A DNA stretch of 30,466 bases from an uncultured archaeon (GCA_964553995.1 CAZKLW010000001.1:6023-36488); one strand, 5' to 3'. Counted from the first letter of the stretch, positions 21,136-24,842 are shown. Notes: generated from the sequence alone by a model not told the origin. Program-made: numbers and translations.

Positions 21136-21326
21136 GCCGGGGTGACTGAGTCTGGCCGAAAGTGCCAGCCTGGAAGTACTGCTTTCTCGACCTCAAGGGA
21201 GAGATGGCAGTTCGAGAAAACCACGAGGTTTTCGACACCGTCTTCTCGCCAGAGATGACGGGAAGATATACCAGCCAGCTGGTGACCCCTGACAGGGTCT
21301 CCTGGGTTCAAATCCCAGCCCCGGCG
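21136..21326 (+). tRNA. tRNA-Ser(GGA) with a 101-nt intron (21176-21276) at position 37/38
   Basis: Acceptor GCCGGGG/CCCCGGC with G73, anticodon stem CCAGC/GCTGG, loop CT-GGA-A^A, long variable arm and T-arm CTGGG-TTCAAAT-CCCAG. Canonical BHB: CTGG(32-35) pairs with intron CCAG, with bulges AA^G and CC^A. Confidence 0.92.
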
Positions 21327-21328
21327 AA

Positions 21329-21349
21329 GAAACCTTTAGAAAAGGTTTC
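21329..21349. repeat. Perfect palindrome GAAACCTTT-AGA-AAAGGTTTC
   Basis: 9-bp stem with a 3-nt loop, directly after tRNA-Ser. Confidence 0.7.
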
Positions 21350-21410
21350 AGCCAAAGAAATCAGTTAGCAAGAGATCGCCCGAACGGATCGACTGCCGTT
21401 CGAGGCATCG

Positions 21411-21424
21411 AAATCCCAGCCCCG
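21411..21424 (+). repeat. 14-nt exact copy of the tRNA-Ser 3' end (att-like)
   Basis: AAATCCCAGCCCCG occurs at both 21310-21323 and 21411-21424. Confidence 0.7.
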
Positions 21425-21464
21425 AAGACTGGTTACGCTCAGTCGACACGCAATAAGACATGAC

Positions 21465-21537
21465 AGCCCCATGGGGTAGTGGTCAATCCTTTCACGTTCT
21501 GGGCGTGAAGACCCAGGTTCGAATCCTGGTGGGGCTA
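21465..21537 (+). tRNA. tRNA-Gln(CTG)
   Basis: Acceptor AGCCCCA/TGGGGCT, anticodon arm TCACG-TTCTGGG-CGTGA and T-arm CCAGG-TTCGAAT-CCTGG. Confidence 0.95.
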
Positions 21538-21540
21538 ACC

Positions 21541-21819
21541 ATGACACAGATACGTGCATCACACATACTCGTCAGCAGCAGGGAAAAAGCGGAGAACATA
21601 AAGAAACAGATCGACAACGGGAAGAGCTTCGAGAAGCTGGCGAAAGAAGCCAGCGAAGGCCCTTCGGCGGAAAACGGTGGCGACCTCGGCTTCTTCGGTA
21701 AAGGCGACATGGTCAAGCCGTTCGAGAGGAAGGCCTTCTCGCTTGAAGTCGGTGAAGTATCAGGGCCTGTTAAAACGGAGTTCGGCTGGCATCTGATCCG
21801 AAAAGAGGACGAACGCTGA
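21541..21819 (+). CDS. ppiC: Parvulin (PpiC-type) peptidyl-prolyl isomerase, single domain
   Basis: IRASHILV, FEKLAKEASEGPSAENGGDLGFF, MVKPFE and VKTEFGWHLI; 92 aa from ATG 21541. Confidence 0.9.
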   Translation: MTQIRASHILVSSREKAENIKKQIDNGKSFEKLAKEASEGPSAENGGDLGFFGKGDMVKPFERKAFSLEVGEVSGPVKTEFGWHLIRKEDER

Positions 21820-21825
21820 GCCCTC

Positions 21826-21872
21826 TTTTCTGGTCATACAGAAAATCCCTGATTTTCGAATGATCAGGAAAA
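21826..21872. repeat. Nested hairpin with core GAAAATC-CCT-GATTTTC (21841-21857)
   Basis: Outer arms TTTTCTGGTCAT / ATGATCAGGAAAA. The core stem is identical to the one in the tRNA-Leu intron. Confidence 0.7.
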
Positions 21873-21947
21873 CGGACGAAAAGTGACTGCTCGGCCCTCT
21901 ATCTACCTTTATAAAACTTGCATGGAACTTGTGAGGTACGGGTTAAA

Positions 21948-22457
21948 ATGTCTGAGACACGCCAGATCGTAAGAATTGCGAGGACTGATATCGACGGCAC
22001 GAAGCCGATAGGTAAGGCCATAGGTTCGCTTCCAGGCGTTGGAGACATGTACGGCAACGCGGTCTCAAAAGTTCTCGAGTATGACAGCGACAAGAAGATC
22101 GGGGATCTGGACGACGAAGAGATAGACGAAGTCGAGGAGATAATCAAGAACCCTGACGAAGCTGGCATCCCTGAATGGATCCGGAACAGAAGAAAGGACC
22201 GTGAAACGGGAGAAGACAAGCACCTTATAGGTGATGACCTGGAACTCAAGGAGGAGTTCGACATCAGGAGACTGAAGGAGATCGAGTCCTACAAGGGATG
22301 GAGACACGAGATCGGTCTCCCGGTACGTGGACAGAAGACAAAATCATCATTCCGCTCCGGCGCCAAGGTAGGAGTATCCAGGGCAAGACTGCAAAAGGAG
22401 GCCGCAGAAGAAGCAGAAGATGAAGACGGCGGAGAAACAGGAGAAGATGAGGAATAG
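21948..22457 (+). CDS. rps13: 30S ribosomal protein uS13 with acidic tail
   Basis: IVRIARTDIDG, IPEWIRNRRKD and SYKGWRHEIGLPVRGQKTKS. ATG 21948 follows GAGGT. Confidence 0.97.
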   Translation: MSETRQIVRIARTDIDGTKPIGKAIGSLPGVGDMYGNAVSKVLEYDSDKKIGDLDDEEIDEVEEIIKNPDEAGIPEWIRNRRKDRETGEDKHLIGDDLELKEEFDIRRLKEIESYKGWRHEIGLPVRGQKTKSSFRSGAKVGVSRARLQKEAAEEAEDEDGGETGEDEE

Positions 22458-22466
22458 GTGTCAAAA

Positions 22467-23126
22467 ATGGTAAAGAAGCTAAAGAAACAGTACGAAACGC
22501 CGAACGAAGGCTGGAACGAGGAGAGAATTGCCCGGGAAGACGAATTAATTGAAGAGTTCGGACTGAAGAACAAGAAAGAGGTCTACAGGGCCCAGAGCCA
22601 GCTAAGATCACTCAGGCGTGAGGCCCGGGACCTGGTGGCATCGGAAAACGAACAGGAAAGAAAGGAACTTATCGAAAAGGCCAACAGGCTGGGACTGGTC
22701 CGTGAAGGAGCGGAACTCGGAGAAATACTTTCACTCAAGGTAACGGACTTTCTCGGCAGAAGACTCCAGACAGCGGTAAACAGGAGAGGTCTCAGTGACA
22801 CCCCGAGAGAGGCCAGACAGCTGGTTGTCCACGGCCACGTTTACGTGGACGGGCAGAGAGTTACAACACCCGGCTACCTACTTACACAGGAAGAAGAAAA
22901 AGAGATCGAGCTCCGGATGCCGGAGCCAGATGAAAAGGAAGAAACTACAGAAGACGAGGAAGAAGAAACCTCCGATGAGAGTTCAGATAAAACGAACAGT
23001 GAGGGAGAAGCCGGAAAAGAAGACGAAGCAGAGGCCGATGAAGAGAAAGAAACTGAAGAGGGCTCGGAAGCCGAAGAGAACGAAGACGAAACAAGGGAAG
23101 AAAACGAAGAGGAGGAAGAAGAATGA
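22467..23126 (+). CDS. rps4: 30S ribosomal protein uS4 with a long acidic tail
   Basis: [22 protein letters not shown] and [13 protein letters not shown] 22467 follows AGGTG (GTG 22458 is an alternative). Confidence 0.95.
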
Positions 23127-23506
23127 GCAAGAAAGGTATCGTAAACATCTACTCCAGCTTTAACAACACTATAATTCACCTTACTGACTCGACCGGAGCC
23201 GAGACAATATCCAGGATTTCTTCAGGAATGATGACTGACAAGGGAAGACTCCAGGGAGAGCCCTTCCCCGCGATGAAGGCCGCGAAACAGGTGGCCGAGG
23301 AAGCCCAGGAAAAAGGTATTGAAAAAGTTGATATACAGGTCAGGGCTCCCGGAGGACAGAAACAGAAGATGCCAGGAAAAGGTGCACAGCCCGCCATAAG
23401 GGCTATATCACGCAGTGATCTGCAGGTTGGAAATATTGAGGATGTAACCCCCAAACCACACGACGGGTGCCGCGCAAAAGGCGGCAAAAGAGGTCGCAGG
23501 GTCTAG
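23123..23506 (+). CDS. rps11: 30S ribosomal protein uS11
   Basis: [23 protein letters not shown] and [13 protein letters not shown]. Confidence 0.98.
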
Positions 23507-23516
23507 GTGTAGAATA

Positions 23517-24089
23517 ATGGAAGTCGAAGTACTAGATGAAACAGACGAGGTTCTGAAGCTTAAACTCAGCGAGGCAAACGAGGCAGTAGCCAACAGCCTC
23601 AGGAGATCAATGATGTCGAAGACACCTACCCTGAGCGTGCAGAAACTGGAAGTCGTCAGGAACGATTCCGGTCTCTTCGATGAGGATCTCGCCCACAGGG
23701 TGGGACAGATACCTCTTGCCATACCTGAAAACGTTGATGAAGAGGACGAGGTGAACCTCGCCCTGAAACAGGAAGGACCAGGAACAGTTCTCGCAGAGGA
23801 TCTGAAGGCTGACAACGACGAGGTGGAACCTGTCAACCCTGAAACCGTAATAGTTGAGCTCAAAGAAGGTCAGGAACTGGAGTTCGAGGCCGTAGCGGAA
23901 CTGGGTTCAGGAAACAGGCACGCAAAGCACCAGGGTGGAACAGCAGGATACGAGAAGGTTGACGACGGCGAGTTCGAATTCCGGATTGAATCTACCTCGG
24001 GCTACAGCAACGAGGAATTATTTAATGCCGCGCTGGCGACCATCCAGGAAGAAATCGACGAGTTCGAGGAAGCGGTCGAAGAACTGTGA
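23517..24089 (+). CDS. rpoD: RNA polymerase subunit D (Rpo3), short form without an Fe-S insert
   Basis: ANSLRRSMMS.TP, NDSGLFDEDLAHRVGQIPL and G.G..HAKH, in the syntenic position after rps11. Confidence 0.93.
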   Translation: MEVEVLDETDEVLKLKLSEANEAVANSLRRSMMSKTPTLSVQKLEVVRNDSGLFDEDLAHRVGQIPLAIPENVDEEDEVNLALKQEGPGTVLAEDLKADNDEVEPVNPETVIVELKEGQELEFEAVAELGSGNRHAKHQGGTAGYEKVDDGEFEFRIESTSGYSNEELFNAALATIQEEIDEFEEAVEEL

Positions 24090-24135
24090 CCTACAGGTAG
24101 CATTTTTAAAACATGTCCTTCAATGCATGGTTTGT

Positions 24136-24534
24136 ATGACAGGCATGGAGATTGACGAGCTGGCAGGATACATAGAAAAACAGTTTAAAGACCACTATCA
24201 ATTCACCAACGCCAGAGACGCAGTTGAAGAAGCGCATAGAATAGCTGAAGGGCTGGCCACAGGCGCTATGGCTCTGGACGATCTTGAAAGAAACTATCCA
24301 CAAATTTTAAGGTACCTGGAAAGGGAACATGAATCCTATGTAAATCTAATGGGTGAAGATCATGATCCTCTGGAAGCAGAGACACGCGTACCAACAGTTG
24401 ACCCTGCACAGGCCCAGCAAGGCGGAAGGTTAGCAGGAAGAGATCTTGAAGACGAAGCCGAGTCTAATCTTGAACCCGCGGGAGATCTGGAACCGCACGA
24501 GACTTTAGAAAGAGATTTCGACAGGAAGAGATAG
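24136..24534 (+). CDS. Hypothetical acidic protein
   Basis: The ORF-track entry 23935-24534 overlaps rpoD. The real start is likely ATG 24127, 24136 or 24145, after TTTTTAAAA near 24102-24110. Confidence 0.6.
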   Translation: MTGMEIDELAGYIEKQFKDHYQFTNARDAVEEAHRIAEGLATGAMALDDLERNYPQILRYLEREHESYVNLMGEDHDPLEAETRVPTVDPAQAQQGGRLAGRDLEDEAESNLEPAGDLEPHETLERDFDRKR

Positions 24535-24606
24535 CTCCCACCTCTTTCTTTAACTCTTGTCAACCAATTTTTCTCAGTTAGAAGTAATGCTGGAGTCGAA
24601 AACCGT

Positions 24607-24751
24607 GCCGGGGTAGCCAAGCTTGGCCAAAGGCGCAGGACTTAAGAACACCACTTTTCAAGGCTCAGCCGAAGAAAGTGGTTTGAGAAAATCTTTGATT
24701 TTCGATATCCTGTCCCGCAGGGGTTCGCCGGTTCAAATCCGGTCCCCGGCA
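24607..24751 (+). tRNA. tRNA-Leu(TAA) with a 60-nt intron (24647-24706)
   Basis: Acceptor GCCGGGG/CCCCGGC with A73, anticodon stem CAGGA/TCCTG, loop CT-TAA-G^A, variable arm and T-arm GCCGG-TTCAAAT-CCGGT. The BHB central helix is poor. Confidence 0.85.
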
Positions 24752-24765
24752 CTCCGACCCTTAAA

Positions 24766-24842
24766 CCGGCGAAAACTGCGATTTTCCGGATACGAAGACC
24801 CTTGCAGGGTCTTCTAGAGCAGAAATTCTCGGAGAGAATTTC
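24766..24842. repeat. Cluster of three palindromes after tRNA-Leu
   Basis: GAAAA-CTGCGA-TTTTC (24771-24786), GAAGACCCT-TGC-AGGGTCTTC (24794-24814) and GAAATTCTC-GGA-GAGAATTTC (24822-24842). Confidence 0.75.

Follow-up and report, generated by a model that had tools for sequence, protein, structure and literature searches.

Short palindromes that open with GAA and close with TTC recur in the non-coding DNA of an uncultured archaeon, two of them inside the introns of different tRNA genes, and the question is what they are and how they came to lie there. The DNA studied here (the window, 30,466 nucleotides) belongs to a Nanohaloarchaeon whose 702-kb genome is 82% complete. A preliminary description had listed eight such hairpins and read them as one REP/MITE-like dispersed element, or else a protein-binding hairpin, that had colonised tRNA introns and tRNA flanks. 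The arrival of archaeal tRNA introns is still described as open (bioRxiv 10.64898/2026.10.13.758758).

All eight sequences are in place and seven of them fold as described; the exception, 24771-24786, is an imperfect palindrome (0 kcal/mol alone) with no stable fold. The preliminary description was also right about the three perfect hairpins with a 9-bp stem and a 3-nt loop (21329, 24794 and 24822), about the context GAGAAAAyC..GrTTTTCGA common to the Ser and Leu intron copies, and in stating that the stem in the Leu intron and the one between genes at 21841 are identical. The eight are nevertheless not copies of one element, because at least five different hairpin families close with GAA..TTC. 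The gene-end hairpin and the hairpin array of the window are the following:

642-667 (+): gene-end hairpin of T-T' type with no conserved core; the end of ORF 85-651, including the stop codon, pairs with an inverted copy just downstream
24771-24866 (+): hairpin array behind tRNA-Leu(TAA), with the imperfect 24771-24786, then 24794-24814 and 24822-24842

Within the array, 24794-24814 and 24822-24842 form a two-hairpin unit (flanks C..T and A..A), a variant of the C..T / A..G unit in other arrays. Similar arrays were found on contigs C7, C26, C52 and C75, and the one behind tRNA-Leu(TAA) is followed by a 3'-end fragment of tRNA-Leu(CAA) type (24846-24866).

To count such structures genome-wide, we took maximal perfect hairpins (stem of at least 7, loop of 3-5) and used 20 dinucleotide shuffles as the control. 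The genome holds 221 perfect hairpins (129 +/- 9 in shuffles), 43 of them headed by GAA against 3.5 +/- 1.7 in shuffles, a 12-fold excess, and the second-commonest head has 9 copies. The comparison with shuffled controls that had been proposed thus bears out the excess, and the hairpins are real. Outside gene calls lie 35 of the 43 (binomial p about 5e-27, non-coding DNA being 11% on crude gene calls with a coding share of 89%); of the eight hairpins described as "essentially non-coding", 642-667 is not entirely so, since its 5' arm includes a stop codon. Twenty GAA hairpins lie either inside a tRNA intron or no more than 200 nt from a tRNA, which supports the view of a dispersed, non-random motif concentrated in introns and flanks, but not its REP/MITE nature, as discussed below.

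The intronic GAA hairpins turned out to be helix P3 of a three-helix module of ~60 nt, called here module A and characterized with covariance model R1 and alignment A1. In the window, the tRNA genes and their modules are arranged as follows:

21136-21326 (+): tRNA-Ser(GGA) gene (aragorn with introns), with a 101-nt canonical 37/38 intron at 21176-21276
21170-21237 (+): module A of the Ser intron, with P1 CTGC/GCAG, P2 TCTC/GAGA, linker TTC and GA-[P3 21216-21233]-GA (R1 61 bits, A1)
21236-21262 (+): second partial module (P1/P2 only), lengthening the Ser intron
24607-24751 (+): tRNA-Leu(TAA) gene (aragorn; Rfam tRNA 41 bits with a 63-nt insertion), with a 60-nt intron at 24647-24706
24642-24707 (+): module A filling the Leu intron, with P1 CCAC/GTGG, linker TTT and GA-[P3 24687-24703]-GA (R1 60.6 bits, A1)

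From the 5' splice site, the module runs through 2-3 nt, the stem P1/P2, a 3-nt linker of variable, U-rich sequence, GA-[GAA..UUC]-GA (P3) and ~9 nt to the 3' splice site. Its best-defined core is asymmetric: A-GAA(R)AYC - loop - GRT(Y)TTC-G. Paired cells amount to 95%, and two-sided changes in pairs number 105 cells, against 31.7 +/- 5.3 in shuffles (0/500 reach 105) and at most 24 in slid controls; covariation among the copies, by which the preliminary description had proposed to judge itself, is thus strong. All nine P1/P2 pairs covary, on the tRNA sense strand. P3 keeps its three outer pairs in 45/45 copies, the GAA/UUC core being without variation; A2b.G2n is present in 45/45 intron copies, 1b.1n is G.A in 33/45 (where 1n is C, 1b is A in 4/4 copies), and 3b.3n is always G-C, with two equally invariant A-U pairs after it. 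On sequence grounds, module A is an unannotated RNA family (no Rfam family matches it), and covariation shows P3 to be one of its helices. The picture of a bare 17-nt hairpin colonising existing introns finds no support: within introns, the hairpin forms one built-in helix of a ~60-nt module, which makes up the whole intron in most relatives, and the protein-binding hairpin, first offered as an alternative, suits the intron copies better than REP/MITE colonisation.

The linker and the tandem G.A/A.G of module A read like a kink-turn, with the canonical P1 helix 5' of the 3-nt loop and the tandem pairs 3' of it; GA/GA is present in 33/45 intron copies, and 1b.1n covaries G.A with A.C. Kink-turns and k-junctions bound by L7Ae-family proteins combine a canonical helix, a 3-nt loop, tandem G.A + A.G and a non-canonical helix (PMC4005666, PMC5061560), and the k-junction is defined by a third helix inserted in the non-bulged strand, with G.A/A.G 3' of the loop (PMC4005666). 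Module A has this order, known here from sequence alone; a third helix would enter on the non-bulged strand, and module plus splice helix would match the definition of a k-junction, if the anticodon/intron helix of the bulge-helix-bulge (BHB) splice motif forms. We propose that P1 may serve as the inner helix (h') of this motif, that linker and tandem G.A/A.G may form the kink-turn, and that P3 would branch off a three-way k-junction at the splice site, leaving unbroken the helix stack needed by the splicing endonuclease. The genome encodes L7Ae, the likely, putative binder of module A; binding, kinking and benefit are all predictions. Module A differs from a generic K-turn in being more conserved than needed (invariant G-C at 3b.3n, two A-U), and from known K-turns in its new location at a tRNA splice site and in its free-standing copies, which usually have C or A at 1b, are mostly without G1b and form a 3x2 internal loop. 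Such a free-standing loop departs from the standard kink-turn, so that a single role in protein binding may not hold for introns and free-standing copies alike. A strict hBHBh' motif is present in only two of the 12 module A introns, Ser-GGA (exactly at the splice sites) and Gly-GCC, the others needing relaxed helices, which sits uneasily with the single alpha-type EndA found in the genome.

Module A occupies 12 of about 25 long tRNA introns of the genome (49-74 bits) and was found in 34/41 relatives and in 49/70 genomes of the phylum, with 0-16 copies at a cut-off of 1e-5 and up to 22 at 0.001. Among its best matches in 29 relatives, 25/33 fall within tRNA introns predicted by aragorn, on the same strand, and one more is in a doubly interrupted tRNA-Gln overlooked by aragorn; in about 17 of those 25, the intron is module A plus 5-9 nt. 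Because of these long module-built introns, standard tRNA finders miss most tRNAs here, and detection without intron mode gave only one tRNA in the window. Comparison of intron length at an orthologous tRNA, as had been suggested, supports the proposed route to long archaeal tRNA introns, in the form of added modules: the Ser-GGA intron is 101 nt here and 59 nt in the relative G009, which does not have the second partial module. This partial module matches the tRNA-Trp intron module at 91% across 24 nt. Gln-CTG is intronless here and carries module A in G019, and Arg-CCT and Arg-TCT contain another module here and module A elsewhere. Nearest neighbours of module copies are often in non-cognate tRNAs, which together with the different modules of one tRNA across genera suggests that the family, probably old, spreads or is exchanged among tRNA genes. 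Within this genome there is no sign of recent intron transposition, the copies being at most 75% identical, and the Ser-GGA and Thr-GGT introns, conserved between families, look vertically inherited.

Outside introns, the core was found in insertions at gene or tRNA ends. At such ends, the window has the following parts:

21793-21819 (+): target T, the final 27 nt of the parvulin (PpiC-type) gene 21541-21819, with its stop codon
21820-21886 (+): 67-nt insertion behind the parvulin gene, with inverted copy, hairpin and direct repeat
21328-21432 (+): ~105-nt tail element behind tRNA-Ser, starting with hairpin 21329-21349 and ending with a tRNA-Ser 3'-end duplicate (21410-21424)

The parvulin insertion contains an imperfect inverted copy T' (21826-21837), the core A-GAAAATC-CCT-GATTTTC-GA (21840-21859) and, at 21860-21886, a direct repeat that has diverged from the gene end and carries a stop codon of its own, and a 12-bp outer stem surrounds the 21841 hairpin. 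The site is empty in G016, G010, G014 and others, as well as on a contig of a co-occurring relative, and filled or doubly filled in G004, G002, G013, L091 and L095, two genomes having tandem double units. Direct repeats at filled sites (27/27 in G004, 24/25 and 23/25) follow each genome's own gene end. A TTCTGGT motif recurs in the inverted copies of different genera, a pattern that favours a single old insertion here over many. The inverted-copy architecture is without known mechanism. The flanks of tRNA-Tyr and tRNA-Phe have the same layout, and 5'-end cases are seen at tRNA-Tyr and at the pyrG start. Altogether, insertions at gene or tRNA ends are 50-140 nt long and gene-less, with a boundary direct repeat and often an inverted copy, and the duplication length is not fixed (8, 11, 14-15, 15-27, 21-22 and 40 nt). 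Exact repeats of at least 10 nt span 9/34 GAA hairpins and 7/163 other hairpins (p = 2.4e-4). The three tRNA-Ser genes, on three contigs, are all followed by the tail element, at 91-94% identity; it is missing from the syntenic Ser-Gln spacer of G009. For the free-standing copies, a dispersed element in flanks is thus supported by target duplications and by empty sites in relatives, although precise loss between direct repeats would produce the same pattern of filled and empty sites.

With a probability of about 0.55, we read the hairpins as part of a set of small, structured modules that reside within tRNA introns and at the boundaries of genes in Nanohaloarchaeota, with the intron module, its spread and the flank insertions as described. 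Long introns would arise by concatenation of modules, and outside introns the core would sit in boundary insertions of 50-140 nt subject to insertion/deletion turnover at the DNA level, as the relatives with empty sites suggest. Such insertions would be harmless through splicing from the anticodon loop or through target duplication at gene ends. A more daring version, which we consider unlikely, makes the hairpin the active site of a novel type of non-autonomous mobile element, copied to other sites by host RNA-processing or repair enzymes alone, for instance through circular introns made by endonuclease and ligase or through fold-back copying, and residing as a spliceable intron in the anticodon loop and as a target-duplicating insertion at gene ends. 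If true, this would offer a concrete mechanism by which archaeal tRNA introns are born and grow.

A purely functional, immobile cis-RNA motif is an unlikely alternative: a site for L7Ae or a lineage-specific protein, vertical in introns, selected independently in leaders, trailers and 3' UTRs (e.g., for processing or RNA stability), the repeats being local duplications. It would account for the strong RNA-level covariation and the invariant core, for the Ser-GGA and Thr-GGT introns, for the sense-strand G.U wobbles of the inverted copy, common to several genera, and for the failure to find a mobility enzyme in the 82%-complete genome. It accounts poorly for a copy number of module A that ranges from 0 to 16 within single genera, for one tRNA holding different modules across genera, for direct repeats that match their own gene end, for tandem double units and for the near-identical 105-nt tails behind three tRNA-Ser genes, and function alone does not predict target duplications. 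Quite improbable are scars of integrase-mediated integration, that is, att duplications left at tRNA and parvulin 3' ends by viruses or plasmids later deleted. Direct repeats at tRNA 3' ends are their classic signature, G005 and G007 carry 1.3-1.4-kb inserts at the parvulin site that start inside the hairpin, and the first repeat of G013 is similar to the G004 gene end (24/27), which would fit an element that brings its own att copy; but the inserts are small and gene-less, no tyrosine integrase (PF00589) was found in the 82%-complete genome, and the inverted copy, the 5'-end cases and the intron module are left unexplained. We give slightly less credit still to a REP/MITE-type DNA palindrome mobilised in trans by an HUH (RAYT/IS200-IS605) or other transposase, in spite of short palindromes enriched in extragenic DNA, some arrayed and some in inverted pairs, and of the target duplications and empty sites. 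The search for an associated transposase proposed earlier gave no match to Y1_Tnp (PF01797; Y1/RAYT), TnpB-type, RVT_1 or Phage_integrase domains in six frames of the 82%-complete genome, and control genomes scored. Moreover, duplications here range from 8 to 40 nt, whereas IS200/IS605-type insertion is not known to leave a target duplication; the core flanks are asymmetric (A..G), and the covariation of P1/P2 is that of an RNA read from the tRNA sense strand. Least credible of all are ordinary hairpins of terminator type, or an artefact of composition in an acidic proteome rich in Glu (GAA). Several hairpins do follow stop codons or tRNA 3' ends with T4 runs, but the 12-fold excess over dinucleotide shuffles, the copies inside introns, where termination would be harmful, and the core conserved across the phylum speak against both.

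Structured modules in introns and at boundaries have partial counterparts elsewhere. Like REP/RAYT sequences and MITEs of bacteria, the hairpins are short extragenic palindromes in many copies, some in inverted pairs, with an extragenic enrichment as in REP; unlike them, they have an A-GAA head rather than GTAG, variable duplication length, no transposase found here, strand-specific covariation and residence in introns. In Euryarchaeota, the tRNA-Trp intron holds a box C/D guide RNA, likewise a long tRNA intron with an L7Ae-type motif. Module A, however, is found in roughly a dozen different tRNAs of a genome, its consensus contains neither C (RUGAUGA) nor D (CUGA) boxes, no guide complementarity was seen, and no Rfam snoRNA matched at E <= 1. 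As far as the account of Fujishima et al. 2010 in PMC4033280 goes, most tRNA genes of Thermoproteales are interrupted, similar intron sequences occur in many non-cognate tRNAs of this one order, and "intron transposition" is taken as the route of gain. The introns described here likewise lie inside tRNA genes (12 here; 25/33 matches in relatives) and are similar in non-cognate tRNAs, but they use one canonical position (37/38) against the many non-canonical ones of that account. They are also modular and strongly structured, of about 55-150 nt, with an invariant kink-turn-like core found outside tRNAs too, with target duplications, and in a DPANN host with an apparently single alpha-type endonuclease. 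Finally, in the Caldiarchaeum model of tRNA-gene disruption, duplicated tRNA-end fragments flank inserted DNA, a proposed source of introns and fragments (PMC3293823). Such fragments beside inserted DNA, as in att duplications, are seen here as well, in this case with gene-less inserts of 50-140 nt, an inverted target copy, a conserved hairpin and no recombinase found.

Together, most tRNA genes of a lineage with cultured members carry long introns built from few covarying modules, and one module is found again in insertions whose sites are filled in some genomes and empty in others, which bears on the origin and growth of archaeal tRNA introns. With defined RNAs and loci, intron gain, splice-site architecture and a possible role of L7Ae are directly testable.

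GAA..TTC closing is also seen in other hairpin families. Directly upstream of tRNA-Ser lies one further hairpin:

21112-21133 (+): 5'-leader hairpin GAACTGG..CCAGTTC

Absent from the original list of eight, it is a member of a separate AACTGC..GCAGTT leader family.

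Shuffle counts and location counts together establish that the excess of GAA...TTC hairpins is real and far above chance. Counting perfect, maximal hairpins with a stem of at least 7 and a loop of 3-5, and using dinucleotide shuffles as control, we found 221 genome-wide versus 129 ± 9 in the shuffles; those starting with GAA and ending with TTC amounted to 43 versus 3.5 ± 1.7 expected over the whole genome, where every other head triplet accounts for at most nine. Outside the gene calls, which were crude and covered 89% of the genome, lie 35 of the 43 GAA hairpins (p ~5e-27), and 20 sit in a tRNA intron or at most 200 nt from a tRNA. 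The eight sequences reported from the window in the preliminary description all occur at their positions and seven fold as described, but the one at 24771-24786, whose palindrome is imperfect, has no stable fold. The hairpin at 642-667 holds the stop codon of ORF 85-651 and is therefore not purely non-coding. The GAA..TTC closing is common to at least five hairpin families.

The genome under study (G000) is a 702-kb assembly in 92 contigs (completeness 82%, G+C 50%), whose closest relatives by the ribosomal protein S13 gene are Nanohaloarchaea records (Candidatus Nanosalina J07AB43, Nanohaloarchaea archaeon SG9 and Candidatus Nanohalobium). The window spans contig C1:6023-36488, and around the hairpins lie tRNA-Ser(GGA), tRNA-Gln(CTG), a parvulin-type isomerase gene, rps13-rps4-rps11-rpoD, a small ORF and tRNA-Leu(TAA). 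With introns allowed, aragorn predicted 30 tRNA genes, about 25 of which bear an intron of 43-151 nt. The genome holds an L7Ae gene and, as the only splicing endonuclease gene found, that of a 212-aa EndA of single-unit alpha type (N and C domains):

L074:1474-2112 (G000 contig C1 ~2483-3121), minus strand: EndA gene, just upstream of the window

Single-unit (alpha-type) EndA is usually regarded as strict, and it is notable that the sole EndA is of this type, most tRNA introns of G000 having no strict bulge-helix-bulge (BHB) motif in our scan.

The motif GA-GAA..TTC-GA occurs in 12 of the ~25 tRNA introns of G000, preceded every time by a stem-loop. Aligning these 12 introns yielded a consensus of three helices (P1, P2 and, after a 3-nt linker, P3 with GA on either side), which we call module A, with compensatory change at 12 of 16 pairs. 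Its covariance model, R1, retrieves all 12 intron copies at 49-74 bits, together with a few weaker copies standing outside introns. When only the relatives are counted, covariation among copies is strong: 95% of cells are paired, P1/P2 covary at every pair, and 105 cells are changed on both sides versus 31.7 ± 5.3 in shuffles and at most 24 in slid controls. The outer three pairs of P3 (G-C, A-U, A-U) are invariant in 45 copies. The first columns of R1 are the anticodon loop and the module therefore starts at the 5' splice site; in ~17 of 25 module-bearing introns of relatives, the intron consists of the module plus 5-9 nt. Rfam, searched at gathering thresholds and at E <= 1 with the window and nine tRNA loci, returned only tRNA and chance-level matches, leaving module A without a family. 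A box C/D or H/ACA guide in the introns was rejected, the boxes being absent.

R1 has matches in 34 of 41 relatives and, at E <= 1e-5, in 49 of 70 genomes of the phylum, with 0-16 copies per genome (up to 22 at 0.001) and wide variation in copy number inside single genera. Among the best R1 hits in 29 relatives, 25 of 33 fall on the same strand inside tRNA introns predicted by aragorn (hosts Arg, Thr, Gln, Ala, Pro, Ser, Leu and Gly), and one more falls in a two-intron tRNA-Gln that was not among aragorn's predictions. Module A is firmly established as an RNA module and is specific to Nanohaloarchaeota. Its distribution and covariation show that both intronic hairpins of the window are one helix of a phylum-wide intron module constrained at the RNA level, and not, as first supposed, a hairpin that invaded tRNA introns. 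At least three further intron modules are common to several tRNAs of G000:

ACTGCC..GGCAGTT plus ACGGTCGCC type: introns of Ile, Glu-TTC, Arg-TCT, Arg-CCT and Trp
GCGTAAGAGGGA type: introns of Ser-TGA and Ser-GCT
GTTACGC type: introns of Val, Ala-CGC, Gly-GCC and Ser-CGA

The order of elements in module A is the P1 helix, three variable U-rich nucleotides, G-A, the P3 helix and G-A on the return strand, a layout that, read from the sequence, is the signature of a kink-turn. Directly next to P3, the 5' A and the 3' G are invariant in all 45 copies, and the outer pair is G.A in 33 of them. Four copies have C at the 3' position of the outer pair, and in all four the 5' position is A, suggesting an interaction between these two positions. 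The strand leaving P3 would run to the 3' splice site and pair there with the anticodon loop, and the strand entering P1 would arrive from the 5' splice bulge, so that the third helix would join on the non-bulged strand. In the published k-junction a third helix enters the non-bulged strand and stacks on the canonical helix (PMC4005666), and the arrangement predicted for module A fits this definition. P1 would then be the inner helix h' of the BHB motif, and the kink would let P3 branch off with the stack left unbroken. A kink-turn role is plausible, and the k-turn/k-junction is the nearest structural class for a module known here from its sequence; a weak point of the k-junction reading is that only 2 of the 12 module-A introns of G000 have a strict BHB motif in the scan.

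The module that a given tRNA carries differs between genomes: tRNA-Gln(CTG) has no intron in G000 or in its relative G009 and carries module A in another relative (G019), and tRNA-Arg(CCT) and tRNA-Arg(TCT) hold a different module in G000 and module A in five other genera. For many copies the closest match is a non-cognate tRNA of another genome, such as the Arg-TCT module of G020 and the Gln-TTG module of G009 (82% identity) or the Pro-TGG module of G034 and the Leu-TAG module of G000 (75%); the Ser-GGA and Thr-GGT introns look orthologous by nearest neighbour. The nearest-neighbour comparison is no more than suggestive of module exchange, since such short sequences are dominated by their conserved core. 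With another module, the non-cognate Arg-TCT and Glu-TTC introns of G000 are 89% identical over 46 nt. The idea of a route to long tRNA introns is borne out in the form of concatenated modules: the 101-nt Ser-GGA intron of G000 corresponds to the 59-nt G009 intron extended by a second, partial module, which shares 91% identity with part of the Trp intron. The route by which archaeal introns arrive is still described as open in a 2026 preprint (bioRxiv 10.64898/2026.10.13.758758), and the nearest published phenomenon is the intron transposition of Thermoproteales (PMC4033280). In tRNA-Glu(CTC) (L026, G000 C50:5033-5354) we observed an apparent non-canonical D-loop intron, the real 5' part lying ~50 nt upstream of aragorn's gene call.

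The copies standing outside introns mark sites of insertion or deletion. The parvulin gene ends with its stop codon at 21817-21819, and the hairpin at 21841 follows in the spacer before the rps13 promoter. The spacer is empty, with 57-86 nt and no hairpin, in G016, G010, G014 and several named genomes, and filled in G000, G004, G002 (one assembly with L075), G005, G013 and the loci L095 and L091. In the filled form four parts come after the stop codon: first an imperfect inverted copy of the gene's final codons, next the core hairpin, then a direct repeat of the terminal 20-27 nt of the gene, stop codon included, and last the same promoter. The direct repeat matches at 27/27 positions in G004, 24/25 in G002 and 23/25 in L095; two tandem units are present in G013 and L091, and SG9 has the inverted and direct copies, the core being absent. 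The inverted copies of different genera have in common a TTCTGGT motif with G.U wobbles, which argues for an old insertion at the parvulin site, retained under RNA-level constraint; the near-perfect direct repeats would then require concerted evolution or renewed events. DNA contigs from three runs of one sediment study contained no within-population presence/absence variant; the joints in them belong to other organisms (intron-less tRNAs and a relative's empty parvulin-rps13 form, on a contig of a co-occurring relative). Two relatives carry gene-bearing inserts of 1.3-1.4 kb in this spacer (L066 in G007, L070 in G005), both starting within the core hairpin, in its 5' arm, as though the hairpin served as a recombination point.

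The order of target, inverted copy, hairpin and target recurs 3' of tRNA-Tyr and tRNA-Phe with repeats of 21-22 nt, and mirrored 5' of tRNA-Tyr; composite elements with repeats of 8-15 nt occur at two gene starts, that of pyrG on contig C8 and one on C75. Of the 34 non-intron GAA hairpins, 9 are spanned by exact repeats of 10 nt or more, compared with 7 of 163 other hairpins (p = 2.4e-4). Within the window we distinguished:

21329-21349: tail hairpin, opening a 105-nt tail whose last part copies the 3' end of tRNA-Ser
24794-24814 and 24822-24842: two-hairpin unit, with flanks C..T and A..A
642-667: gene-end hairpin, the gene end paired with its own inverted copy

Each of the three tRNA-Ser genes, which lie on three contigs, is followed by the 105-nt tail, at 91-94% identity; the tail is absent from the syntenic spacer of G009. 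Two-hairpin units with C..T and A..G flanks are found on four other contigs.

The preliminary description read these hairpins as a REP/MITE-like dispersed element. Membership in REP/RAYT or MITE fails on the features tested, and no Y1 transposase, TnpB-type nuclease, reverse transcriptase or tyrosine integrase was found in the 82%-complete G000. With lengths of 8-40 nt, the repeats are not what a classical transposase would leave, and fold-back copying as the insertion mechanism is only a guess. The idea that the flank inserts are spliced was dropped because a BHB scan of tRNA flanks gave no convincing motif around the insertions; its single hit, at tRNA-Tyr, is G.U-rich and would yield a nonsensical product.

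Several further elements were observed at tRNA flanks and elsewhere. After the two-hairpin unit 3' of tRNA-Leu(TAA) comes a fragment of a tRNA 3' end, of tRNA-Leu(CAA) type (24846-24866), and 3' of tRNA-Leu(CAA) (G000 C29 ~2010-2040) lies a copy of the tRNA-Leu(TAA) 3' end including the discriminator and first trailer bases, which looks like reciprocal exchange between the two loci. We rejected split or permuted tRNA genes as a source of the tRNA-end fragments, the adjoining tRNAs being intact. Another hairpin directly abuts the mature 5' end of many tRNAs and also opens 'type B' introns right after the 5' splice site:

21112-21133 of the window, and at least eight other tRNAs (L006, L008, L010, L011, L018, L025, L028, L030): AACTGC-loop-GCAGTT leader hairpin

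The non-coding stretch 700-880, 3' of ORF 85-651, has no Rfam match and may represent a small RNA or a further free-standing module; it contains a hairpin, AAGCAATGC..GCATGGCTTTGAGA, that resembles the GTTACGC-type module's 3' part. At G000 C46:4852-4908, downstream of a TATA-like box and upstream of a protein gene's ATG, stands a complete free-standing module A (26.7 bits), which would thus be a 5' leader. Finally, the region 3' of tRNA-Arg(TCG) (L017, G000 C24:7793-8090) contains a 138-nt element with homology to the Ser-CGA intron; the element has on either side a 40-nt direct repeat composed of 19 nt of the tRNA 3' end and a 21-nt trailer hairpin.
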